Source: an uncultured Hormoscilla sp. (GTDB lineage: Bacteria; Cyanobacteriota; Cyanobacteriia; Cyanobacteriales; Desertifilaceae). Taken from it: a stretch of DNA of 64,000 nt. Made by a program: the position numbers and the translations under genes. The first letter of the stretch is position 1. The number at the start of each line of letters is the position of its first letter. Of this stretch, positions 10,527 to 60,172 are shown piece after piece. The notes beneath the pieces were generated by a model, which ran no database searches, had not been told where the DNA came from, and saw only the letters and a list, made by a program, of their open reading frames with translations. The DNA is taken from NCBI GenBank assembly GCA_963921275.4, contig OZ001293.3, positions 736,001 to 800,000 on the forward strand, written 5' to 3'.

Positions 10527-10679
10527 CAGCACTAGGGTTTGCGGAATAACAGCACTAGGGTTTGCGGAATAACAGCACTATGTTTTTTGGAATGACAGCA
10601 CTATGTTATGAGGAATAACAGCACTATGTTATTTTGAATGACAGCACTATGTTATGAGGAATAACAGCACTATGTTATG
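10527..10679. repeat. 23-bp tandem array (~6.6 units)
   Basis: CAGCACTA(G/T)G-variable core-GAAT(A/G)A units start at 10527, 10550, 10573, 10596, 10619, 10642, 10665. Confidence 0.95.
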
Positions 10680-10821
10680 GGTGTGGTCTTGCGCCCGTTG
10701 TTACTCGGCCTCGCCGCCCGAACCCGTGCATGGTCCGGCTACTCGAACTAAGCCCGCCTGCGCGGGCTATATTACATGCATCATTGATGCACCTGGCTAT
10801 CAACTACAAGTGATCGCACCC
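10679..10821. mobile_element. GGGTG-ended MITE; empty homolog of the intron-4 insertion site
   Basis: Ends GGGTGTGGTCTTGCGCCCGTTG and CAACTACAAGTGATCGCACCC; 10723-10816 is the reverse complement homolog of 59802-60005. Confidence 0.7.
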
Positions 10822-10901
10822 CGTTCCCACGGTTTGGCATCAGGCATACAACGAACGATCGCTAACCACTGACAGGCAAAGGAGCGGTCCTACGGCACTG
10901 A

Positions 10902-12014
10902 CTAAAACCCCATTGCTTGAGCTACTGAGCCGATATCTGGTTCAATTCCCCGCTGCAAGGGATTGTTGCTATGTTTAATGGCGATATCCGGGTCTTTCAA
11001 ACCGTTACCAGTCAGGACGCAAACTACTGTCGCCCCCGCTGGCACTTGCTCTTTGATCTTCAGCAAACCCGCCACAGATGCAGCAGATGCAGGTTCGCAG
11101 AAAATCCCTTCGCCACTGGCTAGCAACCGGTAGGCATCCAGAATTTCTTCGTCTGTGACAGCTGCAAATTGTCCTTGACTCGCTTCTTGGGCCGCGATCG
11201 CCTTTGACCAACTAGCGGGATTGCCGATGCGAATGGCGGTTGCTAATGTTTCTGGATCTGTTATTGGCTTTCCGGCGATAATCGGGGCGGCACCGGCGGC
11301 TTCAAATCCCATCATTCGGGGCAGGCGATCGCATTTTCCATCCTGATGATACTGACAAAATCCCATCCAGTAAGCAGTGATGTTGCCAGCATTGCCCACG
11401 GGGATGCACAACCAGTCGGGGGCATCTCCCAAATCATCTACTACCTCAAATGCACCGGTCTTCTGACCTTCTAAACGATAGGGATTGATTGAGTTTACCA
11501 GGGTGACGGGATAATCCGCCGCCATCTGCCGGACAATTTCCAGGGCTCGGTCAAAATTTCCCTTGATTGCCAGCACCTCCGCGCCGTAAACTAAAGCTTG
11601 AGCCAATTTTCCCAGGGCGATATAGCCATCTGGAACGATCACAAATGCTTTAAGTCCACCCCGCCGGGCATAGGCTGCTGCTGAGGCTGATGTATTGCCG
11701 GTGCTAGCACAAATTACTGCCTGGGCACCTTCTTCCTTGGCCTTGGAAACCGCCATCGTCATCCCCCGATCCTTGAAGCTGCCCGTGGGGTTCAGACCGT
11801 CAAATTTGACATATACTTGTACCTGTCTGCCGATCTGCCCCGTGATCGCCGGAGCCGGAATTAGGGGAGTGTTCCCCTCCAGTAAAGTGACAACTGGGGT
11901 AGTTTCAGTTACCGGCAGATAATTGCGGTAGGTTTCAATGAGACCGCGCCAGATGGGGCGTGTTGGGGTAGCCTTAAGGGAGTGGGAGTTTTCGGCTGAC
12001 AGAGTAAGAGTCAC
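10902..12014 (-). CDS. thrC: Threonine synthase
   Basis: '[12 protein letters not shown]', 'ASTGNTSAS', 'PVGNAGNI', 'LTGNGLKD'; GTG at 12014 is the likely start. Confidence 0.95.
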
Positions 12015-12428
12015 TTTCGCTTGGTGGTTTGATTTCAATCTATTTGGTGCTTCTGTCCAGTTTAACCCGATTTTTCGCGCAGCGTTAGCCTGACCATAAT
12101 TCCGGGAAATCACCGATCTTTTTGGGGATCGCTAGATTACCGACTGTTGCCGACCGGCGTAGCATGGGAGCAATGCGGTGCAGGTACAACGGCAACTAGC
12201 TGCTTGTACCCAAACCCAGACAAAAAAGCAGTTTTTTGGGGAAAACCGGTCTAAGCAGTCTATACTCGGAATTGCTGAATTTTTGCCCGATCGCCCTCAA
12301 AACCCATACTCAGAGCAGATTATAACCTATGTGAAAAGATAATTTGTGCAATTGACACTAGAGCAGTATAATGATCGGGAACGATGGGGCGAGTTACCGG
12401 GCAAGTTACCAGACAAAAAACGAACAAA

Positions 12429-12932
12429 ATGAGTTTGACAGACCAAGTGATCCCAAATCCCAATACAATAGAACAATCATGGGTGTCTGTTCAGTTTCCT
12501 TTGACTACGGTAGGGGCACCGGTTGTTAATGGCGCTGGACGAGTTCTGATTGTTAAAACTACCAAGTGGCGGGGCACCTGGGGCGTACCGGGTGGTAAAG
12601 TAGAATGGGGCGAAACCCTAGAAGCGGCACTAGCCAGAGAATTTAGAGAAGAAGTCGGTCTAGAATTGACCCAGGTGCGCTTCGCATTATTACAAGAGGC
12701 TGTGCGAGACCCGCAATTTGTCCGGGATGCCCATTTCATCATGATCAACTACTATGCCTTCTCCGCGAGTGAAACCATTAGGCCCAACGAATAAATTGTC
12801 GAATGGGCCTGGGTGACTCCCCAACAGGCAATGTCTTATCCTCTCAATAGTTATACCCGCGTGTTGATTGCCGACTATATGGAAAAGATGATTGATAATT
12901 ATGAGGGCCAGGAGGAGAGAAGATCATGTTGA
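12429..12932 (+). pseudogene. Nudix hydrolase (possibly dihydroneopterin triphosphate pyrophosphatase) with a premature stop
   Basis: Nudix box 'GGKVEWGETLEAALAREFREEVG'; TAA at 12792-12794, after which the frame continues 'IVEWAWVTP...'. Confidence 0.75.
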
Positions 12933-13645
12933 AAAAGGCCCTGGTAACAGGATCGGCGGTGGGAATAGGACGGGCGATCGCACTGGATCTTGCAAGTAAA
13001 GGATTTGATGTCGCCTTTCACTATAATAAAAGTGCCGAAGCAGTCAAAAAAGCGAGTCAAGAAGCTGCTACCCACGGAGTAAAATATATTGCCCTGCAAG
13101 CAGATATCACCAAACTTGATCGAGCTAAGTTTCTAGTAGAAACGGCAGCGGAAAAACTCGGAGGCTTATCAGTGGTAGTAAATAACGTGGGTGACTATTT
13201 GGGAAAAAAAATTAGCCAAGTATCCGTAGAGGAATGGCATCAAATGCTTGATTCCAACCTCAATAGCGCTTTCTATGTTAATCAAACCGCAATCCCTTAT
13301 CTAAAGGCAGCAGGTTGGGGACGGATCGTCAACTTTGCTTTCGCTAGTGCCCAAAATATGATAGCAGATGACATGCATCCAGTCTATAGAATTGCCAAAA
13401 CGGGTATTATTGTCTATACTAAGTCCCTGGCATTAGAGTTGATTGAAGACAACATTACCGTAAATGTAGTTTCCCCAGGAGTTGCAGAAAATTCCATTGG
13501 TTTAGAGGGAACGATCCCGTTATTACCAACTAAAAGACCCGCAACCTTAAAAGAAATCAGCAATGCGGTGGGTTTCTTTATCAGCCCTGAAGCAGATTAC
13601 ATCACGGGACAAATTTTGGAAGTTGCGGGGGGGTGGAGGTTATAG
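12926..13645 (+). CDS. SDR oxidoreductase (pteridine reductase/FolM-like by context)
   Basis: TGSAVGIG, NNVG and YRIAK motifs; lies between the Nudix and DHPS-like genes. Confidence 0.8.
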   Translation: MLKKALVTGSAVGIGRAIALDLASKGFDVAFHYNKSAEAVKKASQEAATHGVKYIALQADITKLDRAKFLVETAAEKLGGLSVVVNNVGDYLGKKISQVSVEEWHQMLDSNLNSAFYVNQTAIPYLKAAGWGRIVNFAFASAQNMIADDMHPVYRIAKTGIIVYTKSLALELIEDNITVNVVSPGVAENSIGLEGTIPLLPTKRPATLKEISNAVGFFISPEADYITGQILEVAGGWRL

Positions 13646-13732
13646 TGTGGCCTGGAGTTCCTAAATTATGAGTCAAGTGGCTGGGGAATTGTTGTAAGAC
13701 TGAAAAATTACTATCCTTGATGACAGGAGGTT

Positions 13733-15507
13733 ATGCTGACTCTAGAAAATATCTACGAAATTTATGAAAGACATAAAGATGCCTTCAATGCTAGAGTTGA
13801 AGAGTTTAAACTGGGAGACAAAAGGTTTAACTTTAACGATAGAAAATCAATTTTAGGAATTGTTAATCTTTCCACAGATTCTTGGTATAAAAACAGCGTC
13901 TGTTATAATCCAGAGCAAGCTGTACGTCGTGCAATGGTACAGAAAATTCAAGGTGCAGATATCATAGACATTGGTATAGAATCTACAGTGCAAACAACAG
14001 AGAGAGTCGATGCTTTTAAACAAAACAGTAAAGTTTTGCCAGTTCTGGAAAGATTAAGTCAAGAATGTGTTTTAACTTCAGTGGAAACTTATTATCCTGA
14101 AGTTGTCAGAGAATGTTTAAAGGCTGGGGCAAATGTTATTAATTTGACAGGAGCAGAGAAAAGGGAGAAAATTTACCAAATTGTGTCTGAGTTCGATGCG
14201 GGAATTATTATGTGTTACGTGCAAGGGAAAAACGTGAGGGAGTTGGGAGACCTTAAGGTTGGAGACGATCCAATAGATTTAGTGTACGATTATTTCGCCC
14301 GAGAAGTGGAAACAGCAACTAAATTGGGTGTCCGAAAGATTTTTATCGATCCTGGAATTTGCTTTAGCTACAGCAATCTTTACACAAAAGAGGAATTCTA
14401 TTCGTTGCGTATTTGATATCAGATAACAACTCTTTTAAATAGTTTTGGATGGGGTCGAGCCGGGAATCGCTTCCCGACCCTCCCTTGAGGAACCGGACTT
14501 GCGATTTTCACCGCATCCGGCTACTGGGTACTAGGCCCTTTTCATAGGTAGACTTAATAGGAATTACTTCCGTTAGCCCTTGCCGCCTGTCTTTTCTTCC
14601 CTTTCCTGGTTTAGCGAGTGGTTGTTCTGATAACCGTTAGTATCACCATTTTCAAGTCAGTTTTACCAGTTATCCATACCTTATCCTCCACTTGCGTTTC
14701 GGATTAGTTCCGTGGCTTTTTAGGATTACTCATTCCAGCAGCTTCCTAGTATCACCGACCCACGTCAGCGCTGGCTACCCAGCATCATCTACATTACTGT
14801 AGATGTTATCCCAGGAATTACCCCGGGCATTCGCTTCTTGGGCCATCCCTCCCCCCGTGGCTTGCGCTTAACATCTAACTTGTCCTGATGGACAGCACAC
14901 GAGAGGTTACTTCGTTCCCTAACAACATTTCGCGATACCTTTAGGTCCACACTATACCCCGGGAGCTATTTGAGTACTATATTAGCCAGAGTCTAAAACT
15001 AATACTAGCTACCATTTCCTTTTTAGGCCAGCGCATATAGCCTTATTTCGCTGGTTCCTTATAACGAGGCTTGCACATGTTTGCCTGCTCTAACCTTGGA
15101 TATCTTTCCTAGCGGCGTCACCGGCTTAGGCTGCCAGTTATCCTACATTTGAGTCCTCGCTTAGCACCACGATGATGTCGCTTCGTAGCACCGAGGACCG
15201 GTGTCACCCCCGTACCTGGGGGGAGGGGAATTTAACCCCCATGCGGTCAGAGTTCCCGGCTAATGAAACCGGGCTAGCGTTCCGTGTTTGACCACGTTAG
15301 GCTAGAACGAATCGCACAGACTCAGGAGGTTAGGGTTTCCAATTTGCAACCAAGTCCCCACTGCATCGGAATGTTTTGCAGAAGAGTTCAGAAGTTCTCA
15401 AACTTTTACTGCAGTGCTGGCGATATTGGGAAAAACAGATCTTATGAGAACTCATGAAGTGCCTAAAGTTAAGGCTGTTTTGGATACTCTGAGTTTATTT
15501 GAGTAGC
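13733..15507 (+). pseudogene. folP: Dihydropteroate synthase-like gene with a nonsense codon and an antisense intron insertion
   Basis: 'GIVNLSTDS', 'IDIGIEST', 'FIDPG'; TGA at 14414-14416; removing 14447-15317 rejoins 'LLNSF|RLRRLGFPI...RTHEV...FE*'. Confidence 0.8.
14447..15317 (-). mobile_element. ORF-less group II intron, copy 1 (871 nt)
   Basis: 5' GTGCGATTCG; DV AGCCGGATGCGGTGAAAATCGCAAGTCCGGTTC; DVI ends GACCCCATCC; EBS1 AGACTC (14989-14994) is complementary to IBS1 GAGTCT; excision restores the host frame. Confidence 0.95.
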
Positions 15508-15623
15508 GACATTAGGAGAGTGCGAGGTGACAGCGCGATCGCAGCGCGAAGTGTGGAAGAGGATTTGCGATCGGTCTCCCCCGAGCTCGCTACTTGCACA
15601 AAAGGGGGGACACCGTCGGATGA

Positions 15624-16169
15624 TTAGTTCCGCTGGATAGATAAAGTCACTCCAGAACAATCTACTTTTTCGACCAGTTGACCGATCGTCTCTCGGGAGA
15701 CTGGTTCTATCCAGTCGGGAGCTATTTCCGCCAATGGCACCAAAACAAAAGCTCTCTGGGTCATTCTCGGATGTGGAATTTGCAATTCGGGGGTTTCCAG
15801 GATTAAATCCTCAAATAATAGTAAATCCAAGTCTAGGGTTCGCGGTCCCCAACGCTCTTGACGGACTCGACAAAACTGGTCTTCAATCCCTAGTATAGTC
15901 TTGAGTAATTCTTGGGGATTTAGTTCTACTTCTAGGAGCGCACAACCATTGATATAATCCGGCTGTGATGGACCAATGGGGACAGTTTTGTACCAGCTAG
16001 AGTAGGTTTTGACGGTAATGCCGGGCGTTCGATCGAGGGTTTTCAGGGCCGCTTCTAGGGTGGCCAGGGAGTCCCCCAGGTTACTGCCCAGAGCGATCGC
16101 GCTTTGGGTGAGCTTTGTGGTTGCTGCCTTGTCAGGGTTTAAGACCATCACTTGCGGGAAGTTTGTCAT
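15624..16169 (-). CDS. folK: 6-hydroxymethyl-7,8-dihydropterin pyrophosphokinase, copy 1
   Basis: 'ALGSNLGD', 'WGPRTLDLDLL', 'IPHPRM..RAFVLVPL'. Confidence 0.92.
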   Translation of the reverse strand: MTNFPQVMVLNPDKAATTKLTQSAIALGSNLGDSLATLEAALKTLDRTPGITVKTYSSWYKTVPIGPSQPDYINGCALLEVELNPQELLKTILGIEDQFCRVRQERWGPRTLDLDLLLFEDLILETPELQIPHPRMTQRAFVLVPLAEIAPDWIEPVSRETIGQLVEKVDCSGVTLSIQRN

Positions 16170-16386
16170 ATAACACGTTCACGAGCCGTACCATTGTAAC
16201 CCGTTCGGTAGTTCTTCAGCGGCAAATTCGATGTGAAGAACCCGCCGATGGCTGGGTTGGCCTGCTGGTAGGGAGGAATGGACTAGCAATGGCTTCATCA
16301 CCAGCACTCCGCCAGACTTAACAGTAGTAGTTATAGCATGTTTTTTGAGATTTGCAATTGTTTCCCGTGGGATAATTCCCCGATTA
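16170..16386 (-). pseudogene. Duplicated 3' fragment of the PhyH-like dioxygenase
   Basis: Near-identical to ~21434-21650. Confidence 0.8.
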
Positions 16387-16500
16387 TTTGATGTTGTCTT
16401 TCACTATAATAAAAGTGCAGAAGCAGCCAAACAAGCGAGTCAAGAAGCTGCTAACCACGGAGTCAAATCTATTACCATGCAAGCATATATTACCAAACTT
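16386..16500 (+). pseudogene. Internal fragment of an SDR paralog
   Basis: Aligns with 13003-13117 (FDVAFHYNKSAEA...ADITKL). Confidence 0.8.
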
Positions 16501-16525
16501 ACCTGTCGTTTTGGCCTCCAAATGA

Positions 16526-17626
16526 TTAAGATTCAATAGCTCTCTGGGCCAGTACATCGTAGAACCAATTTTCCATACGATTTCCATAAACTTGCATGGT
16601 ATATTCTGCTTCCGCCTGCTGTCGGCAAGCTAAGCGGTCGAGTTTGTCAAGATTGCGAATTGCTTTTACCAATTCTGCCACGTTGTCGGGCGGAACTAGC
16701 CAACCCGTTTTGCCGTGACGCACGATTTCAGCGGGACCTCCCTTATTGTAGGTAATGACAGGCACGCCGCAAGCCAATGATTGAATAGCAGTCATGCCGA
16801 ATGCTTCAGTCCATCGATGGGTCATCAGATATCCTCGACTGCGCCGCAGCACTGACTGCATTTCGCTGATTGGCAGAAAGCCTAAATATTCTACCGGCGC
16901 TAAGGGATAATTTTGCTGGATACTCTCCCAGTAAGACTTATCCTGAAGCAAACCCATTATTTTCAAGAAAATACCAGTATTTTTTGCAGCCTCAACAGCA
17001 TCTTCCAATCCTTTTTCAGGAGAAATTCGCGCCACCCACACCAGGTAATCCTCTGGTTTGTCACAGTATTGGTACTCTTTTATGTTAATACCATTTCCCA
17101 CAATTCGACATCTGCTAGCAAATGGGAAAGTTTCTGCCTGAGCTTTTGTGTAAACGCCAATAGTACCGGGAAAACGAATGCTGGTTTGTTCGATAATATC
17201 ATTCATCGCTTTTGACAGAGATCCCATACTTACCAGATGAGCAATGGGAACATTCATAAACGCCGATAGATAAAAAGGAAGCCAGTCGTAAGCAAAGTTA
17301 ACTAGCAAATGGTAATTCGTTTGCTCTTCTCCAATCAACTCCCACATTCTGGTGAGTACGGAGTTAGTGGTTATTTGAATCGGGGCATCGCGATTTAATT
17401 CCTGCATGCTAGTTTGTAGCTCTCCGGCAATTTCAATTATGCGACAATCCACTTCTGTTATCGAACTCTGTGGCGCGACTATATCTACCTTATGTCCTCT
17501 GATAATCATCTCTCGGGCAATATTCTGTAATATGAATTCGACCCCACCACCAATGCCTGAACCAATAGCTCCCACAGGTGTAGAAGCAAATAATAAGCGT
17601 AACGGATTAGCTTGAGTAGCTGCCAT
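16526..17626 (-). CDS. GT4 glycosyltransferase resembling cyanobacterial pteridine (tetrahydrobiopterin) glucosyltransferases
   Basis: N-terminus 'LLFASTPVGAIGSGIGGGVE'; 'NFAYDWLPFY', 'RISPEKGLEDA'; pterin gene context. Confidence 0.75.
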   Translation of the reverse strand: MAATQANPLRLLFASTPVGAIGSGIGGGVEFILQNIAREMIIRGHKVDIVAPQSSITEVDCRIIEIAGELQTSMQELNRDAPIQITTNSVLTRMWELIGEEQTNYHLLVNFAYDWLPFYLSAFMNVPIAHLVSMGSLSKAMNDIIEQTSIRFPGTIGVYTKAQAETFPFASRCRIVGNGINIKEYQYCDKPEDYLVWVARISPEKGLEDAVEAAKNTGIFLKIMGLLQDKSYWESIQQNYPLAPVEYLGFLPISEMQSVLRRSRGYLMTHRWTEAFGMTAIQSLACGVPVITYNKGGPAEIVRHGKTGWLVPPDNVAELVKAIRNLDKLDRLACRQQAEAEYTMQVYGNRMENWFYDVLAQRAIES

Positions 17627-17655
17627 TTTTTTGTCCTATACTTGCCATGCATACT

Positions 17656-17788
17656 TATAGCAATAGTCCGGACAGTTTTTAGGTAAACGGCTGAAACCCT
17701 GATTATCCGGGCGATGGTTGGTTAGTGGGGCTATTTCCGAGCCCGAAACCCGCATTCTACCGTTGCCACTGTCCGAAGTATTGTTATA
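17656..17788. mobile_element. MITE with ~21-bp TIRs, TA-flanked
   Basis: TATAGCAATAGTCCGGACAGT ... ACTGTCCGAAGTATTGTTATA. Confidence 0.7.
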
Positions 17789-17806
17789 GATGTTTCGTTC
17801 GATACT

Positions 17807-18570
17807 TCAAAGTTTTCGATAACACCGGGTTGTAATTAAATGCGGGTGAAACACTTCTAAAAAATGCGATTGCAGCGTTTTAAAAAAATATTCCACAATA
17901 GCAGAATCGTCTAATAGAAACGGAAATTGGTTGTCAAAGCCCTTATGAAAATACCAATTAATTAAAAATTTCCCATCGTCACTCAGCAGTTTATAAAACT
18001 CAATTAACTGTGATATTGGATCTCTTAAATGTTCCATGACGTCAAAACACATAATCGTGTCAAATGATTCGTCAATTCCCAATTTTGATGTGACGTGAAT
18101 TTTGTGAGATAACCCTAATTTTTGCGATCGCTCGATGACGAAATCGCAGTTAATGAGATTTACATCTAAATACTGAACTTGCGTAACATCGGGACACAAA
18201 GCTGCTGCGAGCAAGTGTGTTCGGATCCCCCCGCCAAAATCCAAAACGCGACCTTTGGTAAAATCCGCGATCAACTGTAGCATATTGCTGATATAATCGC
18301 AGCTTTCTAAATGCCACGCTGCTAATGACAAAATATAAGCCGTTCCCACTCGATCGCGTAGCGTGCGCGCAGCGCAATCTCGATAAAATTCATTCGCTGC
18401 TTCCCAATCAAAGTTTTCTCTTAATTCGGCGAGAGCTTGATAACCTTCCTGAAGTCGAATCTGAAGGTCTGTCGATCCATATTCAAAAACGCCTGGATGT
18501 GATTTTCCAGATCTAAATGATTGTCCCAGTAAGCCTTTAGAAACTCTGGTTTAGCTGCGGTTAACATAGA
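17807..18570 (-). pseudogene. Class I SAM methyltransferase with a disrupted 5' part
   Basis: 'VLDFGGGI', 'CFDVMEHL'; a GC-rich small repeat (18352-18376) and frame breaks upstream of the called ORF. Confidence 0.7.
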
Positions 18571-18659
18571 AAAAAACTCCTGACTCCTCTAAATTTATCT
18601 TGATGTTGCCCCTGTCAAGGACTCATTGATTACTCATTAGGTTGAGTAGTACCATCTTT

Positions 18660-20817: not shown

Positions 20818-20821
20818 ATTA

Positions 20822-21433
20822 CTATACATACAATTCCCACAAAGCTTGGTTCTCTACCTTAAGAATATCTTTATAATTCAATTTCTGCTTCTTGTCCTCA
20901 ACATCCAACCTCCTCACTCCCGAACAGTCTGCCTTTTCGACCAGTTGGGCGATCGCCTCTCCGGAGACTGGTTCTCTCCAGTCAAAAGCAATTTCCGCCA
21001 ATGGCACTAAAACAAAAGCTCTCTCATTCATCCGGGGGTGAGGGATTTCCAGTTTCGGCGTAGAGAGAATCAAATCGGCAAATAACAGTATATCTAAATC
21101 GATAGTTCGCGGTCCCCAACGTTCTCGACAGACTCTGCCAAACTTGCGTTCAATGTCTAGCAATGTCTCTAACAATTCGGACGGACTTAGCTGTACCTCT
21201 AAGATAGCACAGCCATTGAGATAATCTGGTTGTGGCGGTCCTATGGGTGCCGTATTGTACCAGCTAGAGTAGGCTTTTACGGTAATGCCGGGCGTTCGAT
21301 CGAGGGTTTTAAGGGCCGCTTCTAGGGTGGCCCAAGAGTCCCCTAGGTTGCTGCCCAGAGCGATCGCGCTTTGGGTGAGCTTTGTGGTTGCTGCCTTGTC
21401 AGTTAATACCATCACTTGCGGTAAGTTTTTCAT
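20822..21433 (-). CDS. folK: FolK copy 2
   Basis: Same HPPK motifs as copy 1. Confidence 0.92.
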   Translation of the reverse strand: MKNLPQVMVLTDKAATTKLTQSAIALGSNLGDSWATLEAALKTLDRTPGITVKAYSSWYNTAPIGPPQPDYLNGCAILEVQLSPSELLETLLDIERKFGRVCRERWGPRTIDLDILLFADLILSTPKLEIPHPRMNERAFVLVPLAEIAFDWREPVSGEAIAQLVEKADCSGVRRLDVEDKKQKLNYKDILKVENQALWELYV

Positions 21434-22125
21434 CTAATCTGTTCGCGAGCCATACCATTGTAACCCGTTCGGTAGTTCTTCAGCAGCAAATTCGATGTGA
21501 AGAACCCGCCGATGGCTGGGTTGGCCTGCTGGTAGGGAGGAATGGACTAGCAATGGCTTCATCACCAGCACTCCGCCAGACTTAACAGTAGTAGTTATAG
21601 CATGTTTTTTGAGATTTGCAATTGTTTCCCGTGGGAGAATTCCCCGATTATGGGAACCTGGTATTAGACGTAGGGCACCGTTGTCAGCATCTGCATTATC
21701 TAGATGAATGCGTAGGGTTAGCATTTTCTCTAATATACTCACGGGAGGCTGGACGCGATCTACCCTCTCTTTAATCGACCAGGGACCGAAACCTTCCGTG
21801 TCGATGCGTTGGCCCACGGCAATGGTAAGAGCCTGATGCCAGGATACTCCCCAGTTTGCTTCTGGGTTTTTGTCAAAGAAAATGCCCCGCACGGGAAAAG
21901 CCCGATCGGTTATACGAGGGCGCGGATGGCTGTTTCCTCACATAGCTGACGCACTGCCCGAATGATTTCCAGGAGGCGACGCATGCCATAGTGCTTAGCG
22001 GCTCTGTGTTCTCGGGCCGATCGCACTTCAGATATTAGATCGGCTACCTGATGCTTGTCAAGCACTCCCGGAACCAGGCTAAACCCATGCTGCTCTACAG
22101 TCTGACAGTAGGAAGTGCTCTCCAT
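21434..22125 (-). pseudogene. Phytanoyl-CoA dioxygenase (PhyH) family 2OG/Fe oxygenase, split
   Basis: 'VEQHGFSLVPGVL' (5' piece), then 'WHQ', 'RIHLD', 'NGALRLIPGSH', 'HSS', 'RRVLHIEF'; break near 21910. Confidence 0.75.
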
Positions 22126-22203: not shown

Positions 22204-22697
22204 GGGTGTGGTCAAAACCCGTTGATACGCTACAAGGCATGGATATCCCCCCAGGATATCGCGAAGGAGGGCCGTGAGACTCTTCACATCTCATGATGAA
22301 CGGTTGCCAACGGGCGCAAGACCACACCAGTTTTAAACCCCAACCGAGAGGTTTTAAACCCCAACCGAGAGGTTTTAAACCCCAACCGAGAGGTTTTAAA
22401 CCACAACCAAGAGGTTTTAAACCACAACCGAGAGGTTTTAAACCTCAACCGAGAGGTTTAAAACCTCAACCGAGAGGTTTTAAACCCAAACAGTGGGGCA
22501 CCGGAAACGCGGGTGTGGTCATGCATTAGTTGCATAGGGATCCCCCCCCAAACCCCCCCGCGCCAATTGGGCTATGGAAGCTTCCCGAATTGCGCGGTTT
22601 CCCCCGAAGATGCGGGGGGTTTGGGGGGATCCGGGGGTTTGGGGGGATCCTCCGACTGAGAGGGCCCATGTTAGATCGACGGGTTTTGACCACACCC
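22204..22697. mobile_element. Composite GGGTG-ended MITE enclosing a tandem array, with a 9-bp TSD
   Basis: Outer TIRs GGGTGTGGTCAAAACCCGTTGAT / ATCGACGGGTTTTGACCACACCC; GAGAGCCCC at 22195-22203 and 22698-22706; inner ends at 22308-22328 and ~22511. Confidence 0.85.
22330..22490. repeat. 21-bp tandem array (~7.5 units)
   Basis: GTTTTAAACC(C/A/T)CAACCGAGAG repeated. Confidence 0.95.
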
Positions 22698-26314: not shown

Positions 26315-26353
26315 CTAGTTAAATCTGATGCCGAATTATGATATATTTCTTTA

Positions 26354-27365
26354 ACTCAAGTTGCGACCTATAAAAATTGGATACAAAAAGCTATGATAAA
26401 GAGAATTATTTTCAACTCTAATCCCTTAGATGTAACAGCATGAATTGACTTGGGAAACAAATTGATGATTCGACTAAAACAGGTTTCAACTTGTTTTCTT
26501 GTTACTTTTTGTATATATTCAAAACAAGAATATTCTTTTCTTTTTGAGTTCTTTTTTCGCAAAGGTTTTAACATTATACTTGACGACTCTTTTAGTAAAT
26601 CCTCTAATTGATAATCATTATAAGCTTTATCTCCATAAACTATTGAATTTGATGGTAAGTCAAAGCCAAAAGATTGCAAAACTTTAACATCATTATAACT
26701 ACCAGTATCTAGATAAAATTCTATTGGCTTTCCATTTTTGTTTACCAACATATGAACTCTTAATCCATAAAAATAACGTTTTTTACTGGCAATATACCCT
26801 CGATATTCTTCCTTGTTATAAATTTGGCATCTATCAATCCTAATATTATCACATACTGGCACCGGGAAACTATCAAGAATATATTCTTGACCCGGATTGA
26901 GCTCTTTAAATGTTTGAGCTATAACTTGGAAGAAAAACATCCAAATTGGTTCGTCAATATTGTGTAATCGACGATTGAACCTACTTTTACTTAACAGATT
27001 TTTTATATACTTGTGTTGGACCATAAATTGACAAGAGCGATCGTGGTGTCCTCCGAAAAAATATGCAGCAACTAATCCGACTGTCATCACTTCGGCATTG
27101 TTCATTTTTACTTGTGGATCTTCTTTTATATTTAACGCTTTTAGTAGCTCGTCACAAAGAACAAAAATTGTTGTAATCATATCTTCCATCATCTACATCC
27201 CCCAGCAATTAACTATTATTTTAGTACATTATAACCTATAAACAGCCAACCCGCCGTCTAGCACAAAAAAAATATAATTTTGTATCAAAAGCTACGAAAT
27301 ATCCCAAATATCTGTAAAGTCTAAGTGGGTAATTCATATTTTTTTTAATAGGTCGCAACTTAGGT
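26354..27365 (-). mobile_element. IS982-family element with an intact transposase (26368-27192)
   Basis: TIRs ACTCAAGTTGCGACCTAT / ATAGGTCGCAACTTAGGT; 10-bp TSD TATTTCTTTA (26344-26353, 27366-27375); 'LDSFP', 'YGLRVH', 'GDKAY', 'RKQVET'. Confidence 0.92.
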
Positions 27366-27435
27366 TATTTCTTTAACATAATTCCCCCCATGATGGGGCA
27401 GTTTAATTTGTTGAATAGCAAGATTGGATGAAGTT

Positions 27436-45224: not shown

Positions 45225-46241
45225 ACGTGAGTTCGACGGACTGGACAAAAAAAAAAGGCGGAGACTGGGTTTGAACCATTCCACCCCAGTCTGAACCCAC
45301 CATGAGTCAAATTGTATCGCGCCTGGATGTCACCCGCATCTTCTGTGAACTAGACGACTTCTGCCAAATGTTCGATTTTTCCGGAACGGTGCGCCACTGG
45401 GAAGAACAACCGCAACTGCCCTCCATGCCTGGGGAACGATGCTGTCGTTCGCGCATGAGCCTCTCAGAAATTATGACGATTGCCATCGCTTTTCATGGCT
45501 CGGGCTTCCGTACGTTCAAAGAGTTTTACACCCTGTGTGTTCTCCCCCATTGGCGCGGAGCCTTTCCCAACTTGGTCAGCTATAATCGCTTTGTGGAATT
45601 GATGCCGTGGTGTCTAATGCTATGAAGTTGTTTTCTTCATACTCGAAAAGGAGAAGTTACAGGCATTTCCTTTGTTGATTCTACACCCATAGAAGTTTGT
45701 CACCCTCGTCGTGCTCATAACCATAAGGTGTTCAAAGGGCTAGTCCACTGGGGGAAAAGCTCAACTGGCTGGCATTTCGGATTTAAATTGCATTTGATTA
45801 TCAACGAGCGCGGAGAGTTACTAGCCTTCAAGCTCACGCCAGCCAACACTGACGACCGTAAACCTGTACCAGAGATGGCTCAAGACTTGTTTGGAAAACT
45901 GTTTGGAGACCGGGGATATGTCTTGAGAGACCTATTCGAGAAATTATACGAACAAGGTCTCAAATTGCTAAATCGAAGCGAAATATGAAAAATCGCTTGA
46001 TGAAAACGAGCGATAAAATCCGGCTCCGGAAGCGGGCCGTCATTGAATCGGTCAACGACCAACTCAAGAACATCTGTCAAATCGAGCATTCTCGCCACCG
46101 AAGTGTCTTCAACTTCTTGGTCAACCTGCTGGCTGGCTTGGTGGCCTACACCGACGCCGATAAAAAACCTCGCCTCGTTCTGGAGGTCAAAGGCTTACCA
46201 GCACTACCTCCTGCCATTTTCTAGTTTCGTCGAACTCACGT
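45225..46241 (+). mobile_element. IS982-family element with a disrupted transposase
   Basis: TIRs ACGTGAGTTCGACG / CGTCGAACTCACGT; ORF pieces 45302-46224 with a stop and a frameshift; no matching TSD. Confidence 0.88.
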
Positions 46242-46764
46242 TACATTTTTGCCTACATGAGAGATAACGACTCCCACCGTCCCAGGGGGGATTTCCGTTA
46301 ACGGCACTTCTTCAACTTGAACGAACCAAGGGTTAAGACTCCAAGAACCTTCTTGCAGAAATTCTTCCTGCAAACCTCGGTAGCCCCCTGCATCAATGAA
46401 CTTTTGCCCATTTTGGAATGTGTAGTGTCCTTGGATGAACGGACCAGCTATCTCATTTTCTGGAAGAGGCATGCCGTAGAGAGTAGTTACGATCCCGATC
46501 ATATTTCTCCCTACCGTATATACCTTCATATCTTCAGGCTTTATCCCATATTCGGTAGCACGGGCCGCTGTTACAATCGTAAACAATGCCGTATTAATTT
46601 GGTATTCACCAGCCCTCAAAATAGCCAATTGTTCCCCACGCTGTCCTCCATTGGTAATGAATGCTCGTGCGTCTTGGAAGTTATTGCATTCAACAACCTT
46701 ACCAAGAATTCGTTCATCTGGTAGCGGGGCACCATCGTGGGCGATTACTAGAGCAATTTCTCTT

Positions 46765-47282
46765 GGCGGAACCTTGACCGTGGGTACTCTGCGAACCTTG
46801 AACAATGCAGTATTTATTTGGTAAGTTCCAGCTTTAAGGATAGCTAGTTGCTGACCTCTCTGCCCCCCATTCTTAATAAATGCTTCTGCATCCTGGAAGT
46901 CATTGCACTCAACAACTTTACCAAAGTTTTGACCCGGAGGTAGGGCAGCACCATTTTTCGCCTCGACTATGCCAACTTCACTTGCTTCAATCTGGATGAC
47001 GTTATTTTCTGTTATACTCTCAGGCGGAACCTTGACCGTGGGTACTCTGCGAACCTCGAACAATGCAGTATTTATTTGGTAAGTTCCAGCTTTAAGGATA
47101 GCTAGTTGCTGACCTCTCTGCCCCCCATTCTTAATAAATGCTTCTGCATCCTGGAAGTCATTGCACTCAACAACTTTACCAAAGTTTTGACCCGGAGGTA
47201 GGGCAGCACCATCTTTCGCCTCGACTATGCCAACTTCACTTGCTTCAATCCGGATGACGTTATTTTCTGTTATACTCTCAGG
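46765..47282. repeat. 258-bp (86-codon) tandem duplication x2
   Basis: 46767-47024 vs 47025-47282 differ at about three positions. Confidence 0.92.
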
Positions 47283-53488: not shown

Positions 53489-53490
53489 AG

Positions 53491-55440
53491 TTAAGATCCT
53501 GAAAGATTATACTGCTCCAGCAATTGCTGGGAAACCTCCAAAGCATCCTGGTAATCTCTAACTAAATTTCGAAGTTCTTGCTCGGTCCCCACGCTGAGAC
53601 AATCCTGCAAATCAGGGGGGAATTCTTCCATCTCAAAAGCTTCGTTCGTCCTTTGCGGTCCCAACTTGGCATCTACTTCAACTTGAGTCTTACCAATAAT
53701 TTCTTTTATTTCTGGTAATAAGAACCCCCGTTGCTTGCGAGCTAATACCCGAACCTGAGTCAAAGTATAACGCCAGTCAATTGCCAGCTTGCGACGCTCT
53801 TGCTCGTTAGCAAGTTCGGCATCCAGGATTTGTTCTTTAACAGCTTCCAAGAGTTCCCACCAGGGCTCATCGCGAGCAATTTCCGGTCCCCGTCGCTTTA
53901 ATGCTAATACTTGAATGATAGCATAAGAAAAATCCGCAAGCGAACTCCCACTAATATCAGTTAGCTGTCCGTTTGCGTCTATTTTCAGTGAAGTCGGCAA
54001 AATTTCATCCCTGTGGGAGCCAACTACAACCCGGTAGCCCGCTTTCAAATCTTGGAGGTTGAGATCCATCGTGGAGGAGAAAATCTCATCTTGAGAGCCT
54101 TCACGCAGTAGAAAACTCACCAATTGCCCGACAATTTTACTCACTCTCAGAGCCACAGCCCAATCAGGTCGAAGTAGCGATACTTGAGCGACTAAACCAG
54201 TTTGTTCGAGTTGAGTCATTGGATGGGGTCGAGCCGGGAATCGCTTCCCGACCCTCCCTTGAGGAACCGGACTTGCGATTTTCACCGCATCCGGCTACTG
54301 GGTACTAGGCCCTTTTCATAGGTAGACTTAATAGGAATTACTTCCGTTAGCCCTTGCCGCCTGTCTTTTCTTCCCTTTCCTGGTTTAGCGAGTGGTTGTT
54401 CTGATAACCGTTAGTATCACCATTTTCAAGTCAGTTTTACCAGTTATCCATACCTTATCCTCCACTTGCGTTTCGGATTAGTTCCGTGGCTTTTTAGGAT
54501 TACTCATTCCAGCAGCTTCCTAGTATCACCGACCCACGTCAGCGCTGGCTACCCAGCATCATCTACATTACTGTAGATGTTATCCCAGGAATTACCCCGG
54601 GCATTCGCTTCTTGGGTCATCCCTCCCCCCGTGGCTTGCGCTTAACATCTAACTTGTCCTGATGGACAGCACACGAGAGGTTACTTCGTTCCCTAACAAC
54701 ATTTCGCGATACCTTTAGGTCCACACTATACCCCGGGAGCTATTTGAGTACTATATTAGCCAGAGTCTAAAACTAATACTAGCTACCATTTCCTTTTTAG
54801 GCCAGCGCATATAGCCTTATTTCGCTGGTTCCTTATAACGAGGCTTGCACATGTTTGCCTGCTCTAACCTTGGATATCTTTCCTAGCGGCGTCACCGGCT
54901 TAGGCTGCCAGTTATCCTACATTTGAGTCCTCGCTTAGCACCACGATGATGTCGCTTCGTAGCACCGAGGACCGGTGTCACCCCCGTACCTGGGGGGAGG
55001 GGAATTTAACCCCATGCGGTCAGAGTTCCCGGCTAATGAAACCGGGCTAGCGTTCCGTGTTTGACCACGTTAGGCTAGAACGAATCGCACAAATTCTGTA
55101 AAGGTTTATCTTGCCATACTATATATTTCAAGTTGACACGCAACCAGTCAGTAGAGCGGGCAGGCAACTAGTCAGTTAAATTGATACTGAGACCCAAGCG
55201 ACAAGCCTTATTTTTTTGCACGGAGGAGATCTTGTGGAGGCTTTGGGTCGAGTAATTTGGCTGAAAAGAGCTTTCGACTGAAGAACTAAAAGTGATAAAT
55301 CCAGGTTCAGTCAGCAAACCAGCTCTGTAGAATGCTTGGGCATCGTGCAGCCTAACTAGAAAGTAGCTGTTGTTTAAATATAGGTTGCACGGGGGGTTAG
55401 GTTGCTCTGGATAGTAAATAGAACTGACACTACTTAGCAT
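53491..55440 (-). pseudogene. Hypothetical protein of the conflict operon with a sense-strand intron and a nonsense codon
   Basis: Removing 54221-55090 joins '...DKPLQNL|MTQLEQTG...'; TAG at 55168-55170. Confidence 0.75.
54221..55090 (-). mobile_element. ORF-less group II intron, copy 2 (870 nt), near-identical to copy 1
   Basis: Same termini; I saw one substitution and one C indel versus 14447-15317. Confidence 0.95.
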
Positions 55441-55450
55441 AGTTTACTCC

Positions 55451-56615
55451 TTATGAATTTTGTGTTTCCATAATTTCACGATATAGCTCTTTCTGATTTT
55501 GTCTCAAGTCAGACAATATGGCACTGATTAGGGTAGCTTCCCGCAACTGTTCATCATCATTTTCACCATTATGCAACCCTACCACCTGCAATTATTCACT
55601 TTTAACACGGGAGCGCCGGAAGTTCCTTTGTCACTAGGAGCATTATAGAGAATGCGGTTTCGATCCGAGGCCAACTTGACAAAATATCCTTCAGAGCGCT
55701 GCTGTGGCTGCCCTTTTGGATGTTGAATCACTAGGAGCTTGGTTTGAACCGTGACAGGTTCGTCCTCCTCTAACTTCAAAAAGCCCCACTGCTTAAGCGG
55801 ACGATTCTTCCGATCCTGCAAGCGCAGTAGAGCATAGTTAGATCGGGATTATAATATTCAAGTGCATCTATTTTATATTCAACACCTTGACCGGGCAGTG
55901 CATTTTGAAAAATTAACAAGCCATTCGCAATTTGCTCTTGAAGATCGAGTTCGCTAATCGGATATTCCCGCCATTCTCTTGCTTCAATGACGTGCCAGCA
56001 AGTCAAAGCTAATTCAGGAGTTACCAACCATCCCGTGCCTCTAGGAACTTGCTTCCTGTCTCCATCGATAATTCTTGGCACGCTCACGCGAGCAACCGAA
56101 CGAGCGCAGGTTAGCAACTTTTCGTCTACCGCCAGGAAAAACATCGACTCGCCTTGGGGATTAGCTTCTCGCCCAGAAATTACAGCGGGTAACCCTTCGG
56201 GAAGAGTGTTGTCTGTTTTATTTGGTACTATGGAAAGTCTCGGTTTGCTATTAGGATTAACTGCTTGTCCCAAAGGTGCAGCAGATGAATCACTTGACAG
56301 AGCAGTGTCAAGTTCCTGGGCTAGATCCGCCAGGGTTCGATGACGACCATCTGCCGGATCTATTTGCTTGGCTAATAAGTCAACTAAAATAACTAGGGCA
56401 TTTTTCTTAGTGTCGTCACGAAATTTATCATTTAAGAAGCCGATCGCGTCTTCCACAAGTTCACTCGGACTGCCGGCTTGCCATCGATGTCGCCAAGGCC
56501 CAAGTAGAGCATGTCCCCTAAAGAAATTTCTTAATGTTTTAGCGTTTTCAAATTGGTCACAATCTAATAGGGCGTCATACAATCGAGTATAGAGTTCAGA
56601 CGTAATTCCAGCCAT
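55451..56615 (-). pseudogene. EAD-like domain + trypsin-like serine protease (two frameshifts)
   Basis: 'GTGWLV', 'LTCWHV', 'QHPKG', 'GTSGAPV', 'VVGLH'; frameshifts ~55840 and ~55595. Confidence 0.82.
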
Positions 56616-56689
56616 ATCCTTTTACGAAGTCATTCTGATAATATAGCTTTTTCAACCAAACTGGATCGTACTTTTGCAGTTCCCCTCGA

Positions 56690-57614
56690 TCGGTTTTTTA
56701 AGCTGTCGCAGTATGACAGGTCAGACGGCTCCGGGATCCTCAGACAGCAGCGCCTCTATATCTGCCAGCAGAGCTTCTAGTCTTGTACGCTTATCTAGGT
56801 CGTCCCAGACTTTGATCTGCTTAACTCTTTTGGAGATACTCTCCATCCGAGATTGCAGTTATTCTCGGTCTGCCGGGAGCTGTTGGGCTTTGATTTGCTC
56901 TCGAATTTCGCGCAGGGACAGAGATTTTCGATCGCCTCCTCCAGGAGTGCCTGTCGTGCTGACTCTACCTTGAGTTTAGCAATAGCTTTAGCCTTAGTAT
57001 ACTCGATGCGACCCTGGCGGAGAGCTTCTAGGATTTCCGGGGGAAGTTTCAGCAGGGGAAGCCTGGTGCGGATAAAGGTTTGCCAGTTCATCTTGCCCAG
57101 ACTGGCAAAGACTGCTTCCACCTTCTCACGATCGGGATTAGGGGAAACGTTTCCCCTAGCATCTGGGGCTGAAGCCGTAGAGTTGTCCGCTGGAGTATCG
57201 GTGCCTTGAGACCTGGATTCCTTTTCCAGGGAGTTCTTCATCCGATACAGCAGCAACTTGACCCGATCGACAGAGCAGTTGAGCTCGATCGCCAGCAGTT
57301 GCAGAATCCCCTCAGTCTCCTCTACTGAGTTCAAATCTTGCCGCTGCAAGTTCTCCACCGTACTGCATCGCTTCCGCATCAGTCATCTCCCTCAACATCA
57401 CTGGCACTTCGGTCAGTCCCACTGCCCGAGCAGCTTTATACCGGCGCTCCCCCGCCACAACCTCATACTTATCCCCCACAGGTCGCACCAGCAAGGGCTG
57501 CAAAATGCCGTTTGACTTGATACTGGCGATCAATTGCTCCATGGCTTCTTCATCAAAATAGCGCCGGGGTTGGCGAGCAGGAGGCAAAAGCTGGTCGAGC
57601 TCGATTGACTGCAC
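56690..57614 (-). pseudogene. parB: ParB-family partition protein, frameshifted
   Basis: 'QPRRYFD', 'GILQPLLVRP', 'AGERRYKA', 'ENLQRQDLN.VEE'. Confidence 0.85.
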
Positions 57615-57959
57615 GGCGTTGGATGGCTTGGAGCCATTTGACTTCTTCGCTCAGACCTTGGGGTTTGGGGGATGGACGCTGAGACTGCTGCTTTGAATCC
57701 ATTCGTAAATTTGTCAAACCTCCTACTATTCTAATGCTGTCCTTTTCTAGCAGGGGCGTATGTTTAACAAAAAATTACACGGTTGAGACTGATAAATACT
57801 CACCTCCCTCCACAACAATGCACGCCGGTCATAGTTAATGCCAAACTTAAGGGAAAGCTTTTCCGAATTTAGACAGAATTAATCACTTTAATGTTATGGA
57901 TTTATTTTACCCTAGTGTAAACCCGACCCAGAGCCTCTAGTATAATATCATTACCAGGC

Positions 57960-58258
57960 GGGTGTGCTCAAAACCCGTTGATCGTTCATGGGCCCTCCAG
58001 TCGTCGGATCCCCCCTGCGATGTCTCGCGAAGGCCGCGCCACATGCGCTGCGCGCACCGGGCTACTAGTCAGGAGCGATCGCACTACCCAAGAGACATCG
58101 CACCCCCCTTAAAAGATACTGTGGGCGAATTACCAGATCATGCGCTCAGAGCTCCCTGCTCCGCCTCGAAATGTTAAGAAATATGTGAGTAAGGCATAGA
58201 ATTGGCGTGGGGGGGTTTGGGGGGGATCCCTATGCAACAACTGCGCCTTCCACACCCC
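57960..58258. mobile_element. GGGTG-ended MITE related to 22511-22697
   Basis: GGGTGTGCTCAAAACCCGTTGAT...GGGATCCCTATGCAAC...CCACACCC; reverse-complement similarity to 22511-22697. Confidence 0.7.
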
Positions 58259-58973
58259 TTTTAACCCCAAGAGCGTCTAAACCCAGCCGCAGTAGGGCTA
58301 AAGGAGGGCGAGAGTCCCAATTGATCGCCAGCATAGTCTTACATTTTGGATGTGAGAGTAACCTCGGAGGTCAATACTTCGTAGGTTTTGGATATAGGTT
58401 GTCCGGAGCGAGGGGGGGGACAACCGCTCACAACTTATGCTCAATTGAGTTAACCCCCCCGTTCGCGCAGGCGTAGCCGTGGCGAAGCAGCAGCTAGCAA
58501 TCTCCCGGCTCGGGTGCTCCCGGCTCCCTGCTATCCCTTGAGGTATTGCCTCGGAGGTTACTTTTTTTTCAGTGCCAGCAAGCAGCACTAATAGGGCCAT
58601 TACGGACAAAGAAAAAAGAGCGTCCCAAAGTAGCCATCAACCTTGAAACCTATCGCCGGTCATAAAGCGAGCGGATTCTCAGAACAGACTGGCACCGAAG
58701 CTCAGGTCATCAATCACCGGCTGTACCCAAAAAAGATTGCCTCATCCAAAAATCAACCCCAAAAAAATCCCCAAGCCGCGTAACTCCCCCCAACTCCACC
58801 ACCCCATTTCAAGTCCCCACTAAGACCCCAGTAAGTTACCAGTAAGTTACCAGTAAGTCCTAAAATCCCGGATCCTGTACTAGATGCAACCGGAAAATAA
58901 ATCACATACTGAGATAGATAATTTTTCGACAAGCACCGGTCATCTCAACCCTGAAAAAACACATCCCCGGGTG

Positions 58974-59801
58974 ATTAGGGGTCTCCCTGGGAATAGCTTC
59001 GGAACCCTCCCGTTCGGAACCGGACTTGTGATTTTCACCACATCCGGCTACTGGGTAGTAGGGCCTTGTCATTGGTAGAATTACTAGGGATTACTCCCGT
59101 TGTTCCTTGTCTCATGCTATTTCACTCATCTACTGGTTTCTAGCCAGCCATCCATTCCTCATCATTATTGCTAATGAAGGGCTCATAACGTTTTTAGAGC
59201 TACTTTTACCCGAGACATCCTGCTATCACCGACCGACGTCTGCATATCCTAAGCATTCCCCGGCGTCTTCCGCATGCTCTTGTCCTGAAGGACTCGGCAT
59301 GCGGAAGACACCGCCTAGGCATTAGCTTCTTAGGCCATCTTTCCCACCTGCGGCATACGCTTCACATCTGACTGGTCCTTTCGGACAGCTCGCAAGGGGT
59401 TACTTCGTTCCCTGGTCTCCGGAGCGCGATACCTTTAGGTTCCTACTCTACCCCGGTAGCTTTTCGAGTACGATGTTAGTTACGAGCGACAACTAACACT
59501 AGCTACGTTGACTTTTGTCTCCGGTGTATACAGCCTTATTTCACCGGTTCTACATAACGAGGCTTACATAAGTTCGTTTATTCTAACCTTGGGTATCTAA
59601 CAAGCGCGGTGTCACCAGCTATGGCTGCCAGCTATCCTACATTTAAGTCCTCGCTGAGCACCAATGGTGATGTTACTCCACAGCACCTCACGCGGTTACC
59701 CCCGTACTTGGGGAGAGGGAATTTAACCCCATGAATACCAGAGTTCCTAGTTTCCTAGGCTAGCGTTCCGTATTACTACGTTAGGCTAGAACGAATCGCA
59801 A
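58974..59801 (-). mobile_element. ORF-less group II intron 4 (828 nt), UUGCG start, inserted in a MITE end
   Basis: 5' TTGCGATTCG; DV AGCCGGATGTGGTGAAAATCACAAGTCCGGTTC; 3' GACCCCTAAT; EBS1 CGCTCG (59483-59488) pairs with IBS1 TGAGCG; joined exons match the empty site at 10799-10821. Confidence 0.92.
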
Positions 59802-60172
59802 CGCTCACTTGTAGTTGATAGCCGGGTGCATCTTAGATGCATGTAAAATAGCCCGCCGGTAGGCTCACGCTCACCCGACCACGCAGGCGGTCGGGTGAGC
59901 GTGGTCGGGTGAGCGTATACGAAGTGCGCGTAGCGCTAGCCGAAGGGAGCCGAAGGGAGCCTACCGGCGGGCAATGTTGCGGAGTAGCCGGACCATGCAC
60001 GGGTGAGGGCTGTGTTTCCCCTTTTGTGCGTAAGGCGCGAGGTTTCTCCTATGCATGTGCGATTACGATGTCCCCCCAGAGGGGGGTGCGGTTAGCGCGA
60101 GGTATCTCCACCGGTTGTGCGATTAGCGCTCCCAGGAGATACCTCCCCCCAGAGGGGGGACATCGAGCTCCC

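Follow-up and report, generated by a model that had tools for sequence, protein, structure and literature searches.

What has been inserted into what at positions 58974-59801 of a 64,000-nt stretch of DNA from an uncultured Hormoscilla sp. (GCA_963921275.4, contig OZ001293.3, positions 736,001-800,000 of the forward strand; the whole stretch is hereafter the window), and why does a second copy of the same target, some 48 kb away, stand empty? The insert is intron 4, a group II intron that lacks an open reading frame (ORF), and its host is a small repeat. A sequence-only reading of the window had proposed that the intron parasitizes, and disables, the terminal inverted repeat of a multicopy miniature inverted-repeat transposable element (MITE), and that the empty copy, which carries a single base change in the intron-binding site, may be a poorer target. 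The account favored here is that one copy of an intergenic repeat, rich in hairpins and low in copy number, was probably invaded through reverse splicing by an ORF-less group II intron. The insert is homologous to a group II family, its boundaries are exact, and its exon-binding site 1 (EBS1) is complementary to intron-binding site 1 (IBS1) in a manner that covaries among sister introns.

A filled and an empty target in one window

In minus-strand orientation, ...ATCAACTACAAGTGAGCG closes the 5' exon at 59819-59802, and the intron extends from TTGCGATTCG... at 59801 to ...CCCCTAAT at 58974. In a wider reading, ...GGCTATCAACTACAAGTGAGCG runs up to 59802, the insert opens at 59801 as TTGCGATTCGTTCTAGCC... 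and closes at 58974 as ...GACCCCTAAT, and the exon resumes with CACCCGGGG.... The intron therefore starts with TTGCG and stops with AAT. On the plus strand, positions 10799-10821 read ATCAACTACAAGTGATCG and then CACCC, and 10799-10816 has the same 18 bases as 59819-59802, save for GATCG in place of GAGCG. Both intron boundaries are exact because this empty paralog (10723-10821) lies uninterrupted, and they cannot be shifted because the last base of the 5' exon, G, differs from the last base of the intron, T. With up to three mismatches allowed, the 18-mer at the site matches the window at exactly these two places, against 0.02 expected from 100 shuffles. The joined exons with CACCC that had been proposed, the placement of the intron within a repeated, non-coding element, and the presence of an empty homolog in the same window are all borne out.

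The homology that had been drawn between 10723-10816 and 59802-60005 stands for two blocks and fails for the middle. The left block is a 22-mer, identical at 10723-10744 and 59982-60003 (two matches in the window against 0.00 expected), and the right block is 55 nt in length, with 10762-10816 being 89% complementary to 59802-59856. Between them, the empty copy has a 17-nt stretch with a short GC hairpin, and nested palindromes fill about 125 nt in the occupied copy, with 18-nt arms at 100% identity and 22-nt arms at 91%. When a profile made from 12 of the 16 known copies of the repeat (see below) was run on the window, only these two copies were returned.

Several features place the insert among the group II introns. 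The Rfam model RF00029 finds domain 5 followed by part of domain 6 with a score of 39.3 bits against a gathering threshold of 40 (E = 3.3e-4 over the whole window and 5.2e-6 in a 1-kb search), and the AGC triad, the GAAA loop, and the 2-nt bulge of domain 5 are all visible in the alignment. The 3' end, ...UAAU, agrees with the AY of group II introns, and the 5' end, UUGCG, is one substitution off the GUGYG consensus. The RNA fold of intron 4 has a z-score of -4.4, calculated on a stretch offset by one base. By homology with a sister intron of the window, intA, the candidate branch-point adenosine is the A of GAGACCCC, 8 nt before the last base, although the local domain 6 alignment that Rfam gives for intron 4 differs; the Rfam alignment of intA ends at that intron's AU, and intron 4 is longer than intA by two bases between the domain 6 helix and the 3' end. 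A distant-mode blastn search of the PLSDB plasmids with intron 4 gave no match.

Base pairing at the target and the sister introns

In the alignment of the ORF-less introns, the EBS1 column falls within the loop of a hairpin, some 314-329 nt from the start of the introns, and reads CGCTCG in intron 4, AGACTC in intA and intB, and TGCCTC in intC. Through this hexamer each intron pairs with the six bases that end its own 5' exon, by five Watson-Crick pairs and one G-U in intron 4, by six Watson-Crick pairs in intA, and by six in intC, and cross-pairings among these three produce two to four mismatches. It is this covariation in three distinct introns that identifies EBS1 at 59483-59488, and the EBS1-IBS1 pairing that marks a group II intron is thus present. 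A candidate EBS2 pairs with exon positions -11 to -5 (ACAAGTG) through seven pairs, one of them G-U, and sits where intron 4 departs from its relatives, between conserved flanks. Judged by reading of the alignment, the homologous segment forms only four to five pairs in intA and none in intC, and for this reason EBS2 is kept as a candidate. A second 6-7-mer complementary to IBS1 is found in domain 1 of intron 4 (59652-59657), intA, and intC (homologous columns 270/280); as a functional site it was set aside as probably a chance match, since it falls in different columns and is of a kind that chance alone would produce.

The single G>T change of the empty copy, at 10814, falls at IBS1 position -3, opposite a C of EBS1, and one central C:G pair is lost, just as had been claimed. 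EBS1 forms four Watson-Crick pairs, one G-U, and one mismatch with the empty site, compared with five and one at the occupied site, and the T would weaken the pairing by one base pair.

DNA target recognition by group II introns is described as resting largely on base pairing (PMC3898094). By analogy with the established biology of these introns, from which both reverse splicing and the supply of a reverse transcriptase (RT) in trans are taken, the following course of events appears probable. Intron 4 belongs to an ORF-less family that is abundant in this Hormoscilla-like cyanobacterium, and its RNA would have reverse-spliced into the DNA strand carrying IBS2-IBS1 of one repeat copy, where the site would offer some 11-12 contiguous bases (IBS2 plus IBS1) to EBS2 and EBS1, followed by C at +1. 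Complementary DNA would then have been made by an RT supplied in trans from an RT-bearing intron, and the copy at 10.8 kb would be a paralog that was never invaded, and hence a natural empty-site control.

The 64 kb hold six group II intron copies or fragments, comprising four ORF-less introns and two RT-bearing fragments (Table 1). Domains 5 and 6 were detected in three of the four ORF-less copies, with intA and intB scoring 44.4 bits against RF00029, above the gathering threshold. For intC, Rfam reports no domain 5 even at E up to 1; the corresponding region differs from the other copies at many alignment positions, and intC looks degenerate. The 100% identity of intA and intB over the stretches reported suggests recent mobility. 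The 5' exon of intA ends ...GAGTCT at 15318-15323 and forms six of six pairs with EBS1, as against ...GAATTT (exon side of 55085-55090) for intB, with one mismatch and one G-U in IBS1. By its appearance, intB looks like an ectopic insertion, and its mismatched site shows that members of this family can occupy a target despite a single IBS1 mismatch. Since two of 14 loci of 3 kb from other Hormoscilla genomes (L011 and L013; described below) also hold a family 5' end, these introns look very abundant in the Hormoscilla lineage. The lineage is one of little-studied, sponge-symbiont cyanobacteria that are unusually rich in group II introns.

The sister introns also bear on the present state of intron 4. 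Its first base is T, compared with a GTGCG start in all five other family 5' ends. The GUGYG consensus and an interaction between the first and the penultimate nucleotides are described in PMC4238363. Because it starts with U where the family has G, intron 4 is probably a decaying or poorly splicing resident and not an active specialist on the repeat, and its predicted splicing, whether self- or protein-assisted, may be inactive.

The two RT-bearing introns lie tail to tail, with about 68% DNA identity. In the plus-strand fragment, the ORF at 60337-61905 has the Pfam domains RVT_1, GIIM, and HNH, and domain 5 is found at 61835-61911; the fragment is without domains 1-3, and its RT is short of about 85 residues at the N terminus. 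Homology between the two RT-bearing copies begins only at 60173. The nearest solved protein is PDB chain 6ME0_C, named 'Maturase reverse transcriptase', to residues 87-555 of which the ORF aligns with E = 4.7e-90; we take this entry to be the TeI4h protein of T. elongatus. Domain 5 alone is about 80% alike between the ORF-less introns and the local RT-bearing ones.

Assignment of intron 4 to class C, the members of which target terminators or attC sites, was considered and rejected. The insertion site is about 25 nt past the nearest hairpin; a short IBS1 without IBS2 would be expected, whereas intron 4 has a candidate EBS2; and the associated RT is of a type with HNH that resembles 6ME0_C. A terminator-like motif lies about 45 nt upstream of the site, with motif counts equal to those of shuffles, and promoter and terminator scans around both repeat copies similarly returned counts no different from shuffles.

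Some neighboring duplications may be recorded here. Directly upstream of intA lies one copy of a segmental duplication (15647-16387 versus 20914-21651), which, together with the pair 13003-13117 and 16386-16500, shows 76-96% identity and includes a second HPPK (folK-like) gene. At 46765-47280, a 258-nt unit occurs twice in tandem with 99% identity, in or next to an ORF (46236-47063) that has no Pfam match.

Table 1. Coordinates of intron 4, its target, the two repeat copies, and the related introns of the window
Feature	Position	Strand	Basis or remark
Intron 4, ORF-less group II intron, 828 nt	58974-59801	minus	end-to-end alignment with the three other ORF-less window copies; boundaries from the empty paralog
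Domain 5 and part of domain 6 of intron 4	58987-59052	minus	Rfam RF00029, 39.3 bits
EBS1, CGCTCG	59483-59488	minus	hairpin loop about 314 nt into intron 4; covariation with 5' exon
Candidate EBS2, CGCTTGT	59600-59606	minus	complementarity only
IBS1, TGAGCG, occupied site	59802-59807	minus	pairs with EBS1
Candidate IBS2, ACAAGT, occupied site	59807-59812	minus	complementarity
3' exon, first five bases, CACCC	58973-58969	minus	same in the empty copy
Occupied repeat copy, long form	59802-60003	minus	left block 59982-60003; nested palindromes 59845-59978; right block 59802-59856
Empty repeat copy, short form	10723-10821	plus	insertion point between 10816 and 10817; variant T at 10814; nhmmer E = 1.4e-22
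Junction module, GGTGTGGTCTTGCGCCCGTT...	10680-10722	plus	between the 23-nt tandem array (10492-10675) and the empty copy
intA, ORF-less	14449-15317	minus	family alignment
intB, ORF-less	54223-55090	minus	identical to intA over the stretches compared
intC, ORF-less	47604-~48480	plus	family alignment
RT-bearing group II intron fragment, 5'-truncated	60173-61911	plus	adjoins the repeat as context; no part of the repeat
Second RT-bearing copy	63436 down to 61922, on to ~64000	minus	frame breaks; without the 3' part including domain 5

The host repeat and the occupancy of its copies

Copies of the repeat in other genomes were located by scanning one genome per species with the 19-mer that adjoins the insertion site. 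Eighteen loci were found. Fourteen of them are in three Hormoscilla metagenome-assembled genomes (MAGs; five in GM7CHS1pb, five in GUM202, and four in SP12CHS1), and the other four are in unrelated bacteria, have no flanking similarity, and agree in number with the approximately four chance matches expected by our own estimate. The Hormoscilla loci collapse to about 9-10 distinct sites by similarity of their flanks and, with the two copies of the window, they constitute the 16 known copies. The element, which had been supposed to be multicopy, is so in a weak sense only, at some four to five exact 19-mer copies per Hormoscilla MAG and two in the window, with diverged copies uncounted.

Aligned, the 16 copies form a mosaic of a left module (...CCCGTGCATGGTCCGGCTACTC...), a GC hairpin with a loop that carries from 3 to more than 100 nt, a second small hairpin, and a right module that holds the target. 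Four loci (L002, L011, L012, and L018) have no left module, and three (L001, L003, and L004) have nothing in common with the other copies beyond the final 30 nt or so, from about -27 to +1 around the insertion point. All copies are intergenic, located between ordinary genes, and they often abut, or are wedged between, tandem arrays of 21-23-nt units through conserved junctions. Such arrays are found at 10492-10675 and 22309-22512 in the window and at loci L002, L010-L013, and L017, bracketed by GGTGTGGTCTTGCGCCCGTT on one side and CCGGTGCCCCACTGTT on the other. The junction module next to the empty copy recurs at 22309-22330 and in L005, L006, and L016, and the array junction sequences are also seen at 10680-10699 and around 22309-22520. 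A further tandem stretch, at approximately 58830-58870, was read by eye and has a shorter unit of about 11 nt.

Two incidental likenesses within the repeat were examined and dismissed. The central GC hairpin of the empty copy (10746-10769, plus strand) matches the 24-nt Rfam model CRISPR-DR28 with 34.3 bits, below its gathering threshold of 35; this is the only Rfam result on the repeat, and a CRISPR reading was rejected as there is no array. The CRISPR-DR28 family may itself include palindromic dispersed repeats. A 10-nt likeness, AGTAGCCGGA, of the left module, read on its reverse strand, to the beginning of domain 5 was judged to be due to chance (about 0.3 expected by our own estimate), and Rfam reports no domain 5 there.

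Is this repeat a MITE? The short copy (10676-10830) contains no inverted pair of at least 8 nt at a seed of 6, and the eight pairs found in the long copy (59795-60040) are mostly internal, with none joining the termini of the repeat; one arm (I5/I6, 59801-59808) extends one base into the intron. Nine copies could be compared at both ends, and no copy-specific target duplication was found among them. The left border could be read in eight of the nine, as AACCC in six and CACCC in two, with L016 being ambiguous, and the right border of the same nine is CACCC in five, CACAC in two, and CGAGA in two. The (A/C)ACCC pentamer is not a copy-specific target duplication, because most copies have it alike at both borders; on the left it belongs to a conserved upstream module. 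Nor is CACCC the terminus that it had been taken for: it follows the insertion point in only six of 16 copies, the others having CACAC (three), CACCG (two), CGAGA (three), or CGGTT (two).

The gene neighborhoods were equally devoid of a partner. Pfam was run on 37 of the 117 stop-to-stop ORFs of at least 90 amino acids at the 14 loci (3 kb each), the longer, non-nested ones being chosen, and no transposase consistently accompanied the copies, the sole exception being at L016, which has a PD-(D/E)XK 'transposase' family protein as its neighbor. The search for an autonomous element sharing the ends of the repeat covered the window and the surroundings of the loci, and none was found there. In the window itself, where Pfam covered 41 of the 47 ORFs of at least 150 amino acids (the six excluded overlap longer ORFs), the only insertion sequence (IS) is an IS4-like element at 26352-27367, with a DDE_Tnp_1 match (26368-27192, minus strand) and 25-nt terminal inverted repeats unrelated to the repeat; a 73-nt piece of this element matches L007 at 93%. 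The MITE label is unfounded: there is no terminal inverted repeat, and the element is a mosaic of short modules between tandem arrays. The idea that the intron had disabled a terminal inverted repeat is not supported: no such repeat of 8 nt or more, no copy-specific duplication, and no partner transposase was found.

All 14 Hormoscilla copies are empty, 13 of them with GAGCG and one (L013) with GAACG, and no intron remnants are found at these sites. Occupancy is therefore one in 14 among copies with G at this position and none in two among those without (Fisher p = 1.0), and the expectation that occupancy would track GAGCG versus GATCG finds no support, 13 GAGCG copies being empty. Comparison of the copies indicates that G is clearly ancestral at IBS1 position -3, with T a derived change private to one copy. 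Emptiness is explained without the T variant; it is the normal state of the repeat. Synteny gives neither window copy an ortholog among the 14 loci, which therefore supply no empty allele orthologous to the occupied site.

A number of considerations weigh against the account preferred here, or against parts of it. The 19-mer used for the scan sits at the target itself, such that copies diverged there are missed and both the copy number and the apparent 'core' are biased toward that stretch, and within-genome occupancy for the organism of the window concerns two copies only, those in the window. No intact RT gene or helper protein is visible in the window, the nearest ORF being N-terminally truncated and the other frame-broken. 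The U at position 1 of intron 4 could be tolerated. The three MAGs may lack an intron with this EBS1, and the 13 empty matching sites are then no proof of a poor target. Finally, with one insertion of this variant, site-specific retrohoming cannot be told from a lucky ectopic event followed by adaptation of the EBS.

Against this background, the alternatives can be weighed. That a specialist intron lineage homes into and disables the terminal repeat of a multicopy MITE, with the GATCG copy escaping through its IBS1 mismatch, draws on a match of EBS1 and the candidate EBS2 to the site over 11-12 bases, on the location of the target in the best-conserved part of the repeat (albeit the part chosen by the query), on the loss of a central IBS1 pair in the T variant, and on precedents for introns of multicopy IS, as reported for RmInt1 in ISRm2011-2 (PMC4238363) and for E.c.I4 and others in IS3-like elements (PMC3522654). 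It is nonetheless distinctly unlikely, considering that the repeat has none of the hallmarks of a MITE looked for above, that only one of 16 copies is occupied with 13 perfect matches standing empty, that a sister intron tolerates one IBS1 mismatch, and that intron 4 begins with U and not G. A reduced version, in which the lineage of intron 4 (EBS1 CGCTCG, EBS2 GCTTGT) would use the conserved right module as a natural multicopy homing site and variants of the GATCG type would be escape alleles, is a speculative suggestion to which we would attach little weight; if true, it would provide a cyanobacterial, non-coding counterpart of the IS-dwelling introns and a visible arms race between two selfish elements.

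A different view of the host would make it a structured intergenic module that is not transposable, resembling the repetitive extragenic palindromic (REP) sequences and REPINs or maintained by the host, for example as an array-associated hairpin cassette, with a one-off insertion of the intron into an RNA-accessible, transcribed hairpin region. The nested perfect palindromes of the long form are in keeping with this, as are the score of the central hairpin against CRISPR-DR28 with no array, the intergenic position of all copies, and the recombination of the modules in different orders and their abutment on tandem arrays through conserved junctions. However, single-strand folding of the short copy is no better than that of shuffles (z = -1.55 and -0.86), no gene of the RAYT type (Y1 transposase) was seen among the window ORFs scanned, and at the orthologous positions in the three MAGs nothing corresponds to the copies of the window, an absence consistent with turnover or mobility; we regard this view as unlikely, if less so than the preceding two. 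The junction core of about 30 nt could also be read as a portable homing-site footprint, left by precise intron loss or spread as exon flank by co-conversion during retrohoming, and the span shared by L001, L003, and L004 is indeed about the size of a group II target site. As this span is centered on the 19-mer query, it is an effect of ascertainment, and with no intron remnants at the 14 empty sites and no evidence of past occupancy, such a footprint is highly improbable. Insertion of an ORF-less group II intron, by reverse splicing, into one copy of a low-copy intergenic repeat thus remains the explanation that we favor.

Comparison with known systems

Full-text searching of the literature found no paper on Hormoscilla group II introns, and among the matches listed (titles and abstracts) there was none on an intron inserted in a MITE. 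That introns may reside in repeated or mobile DNA and leave most of their sites free is already established in the accounts given in PMC3522654, PMC4238363, and PMC2882425, and no new mechanism is called for here: an intron in a dispersed repeat is an ordinary pattern for bacterial introns and not a new kind of element. The value of the locus lies elsewhere. A filled and an empty copy in one window give exact intron boundaries and, when the sister introns are added, a clean example from nature of EBS1 covarying with IBS1. The locus is also an aid to annotation, in that it draws attention to ORF-less introns and to an intergenic repeat of modular build, both of which gene-calling and repeat-finding programs would overlook, and a census of how introns and targets behave across the Hormoscilla genome could start from it.

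As to the repeat, it resembles MITEs in being small (about 100-200 nt), non-coding, intergenic, and hairpin-forming and in having several copies, and it differs from them in its mosaic structure and in having, in the data searched, no terminal inverted repeats, variable target duplications, or related autonomous IS. REP and REPIN sequences are extragenic palindromic hairpins, a description that also suits the repeat, the long form of which contains a nested inverted doublet; unlike them, it appears to be low in copy number, and no Y1 (RAYT) transposase was seen among the scanned ORFs of the window.

As to the intron, the IS-resident introns RmInt1 in ISRm2011-2 (PMC4238363) and E.c.I1, E.c.I3, E.c.I4, and E.c.I9 (PMC3522654) are similar in that they are described at a defined position in a repeated element with most sites empty. 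Many homing sites are reported to be free, for example in Shigella flexneri Sf301, which has one copy and 42 free sites (PMC3522654). In the cases so described, the host has been proven to be an IS, has a transposase gene, and is occupied in several of its copies, whereas the host of intron 4 is non-coding, lacks terminal inverted repeats, and is of unproven mobility, with one of 16 known copies occupied. A close parallel is offered by the TeI3 introns of Thermosynechococcus elongatus (Mohr et al. 2010, PMC2882425), where ORF-less families with diverged EBS are described as being mobilized in trans, at sites mostly outside genes. Common to both systems is a small cyanobacterial ORF-less family beside RT-bearing relatives. 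In Hormoscilla, the likeness to the local RT-bearing introns is that of domain 5, derivation from them is a possibility, and mobilization in trans is a candidate process; the insertion of intron 4, in contrast to those of TeI3, lies in a dispersed repeat.

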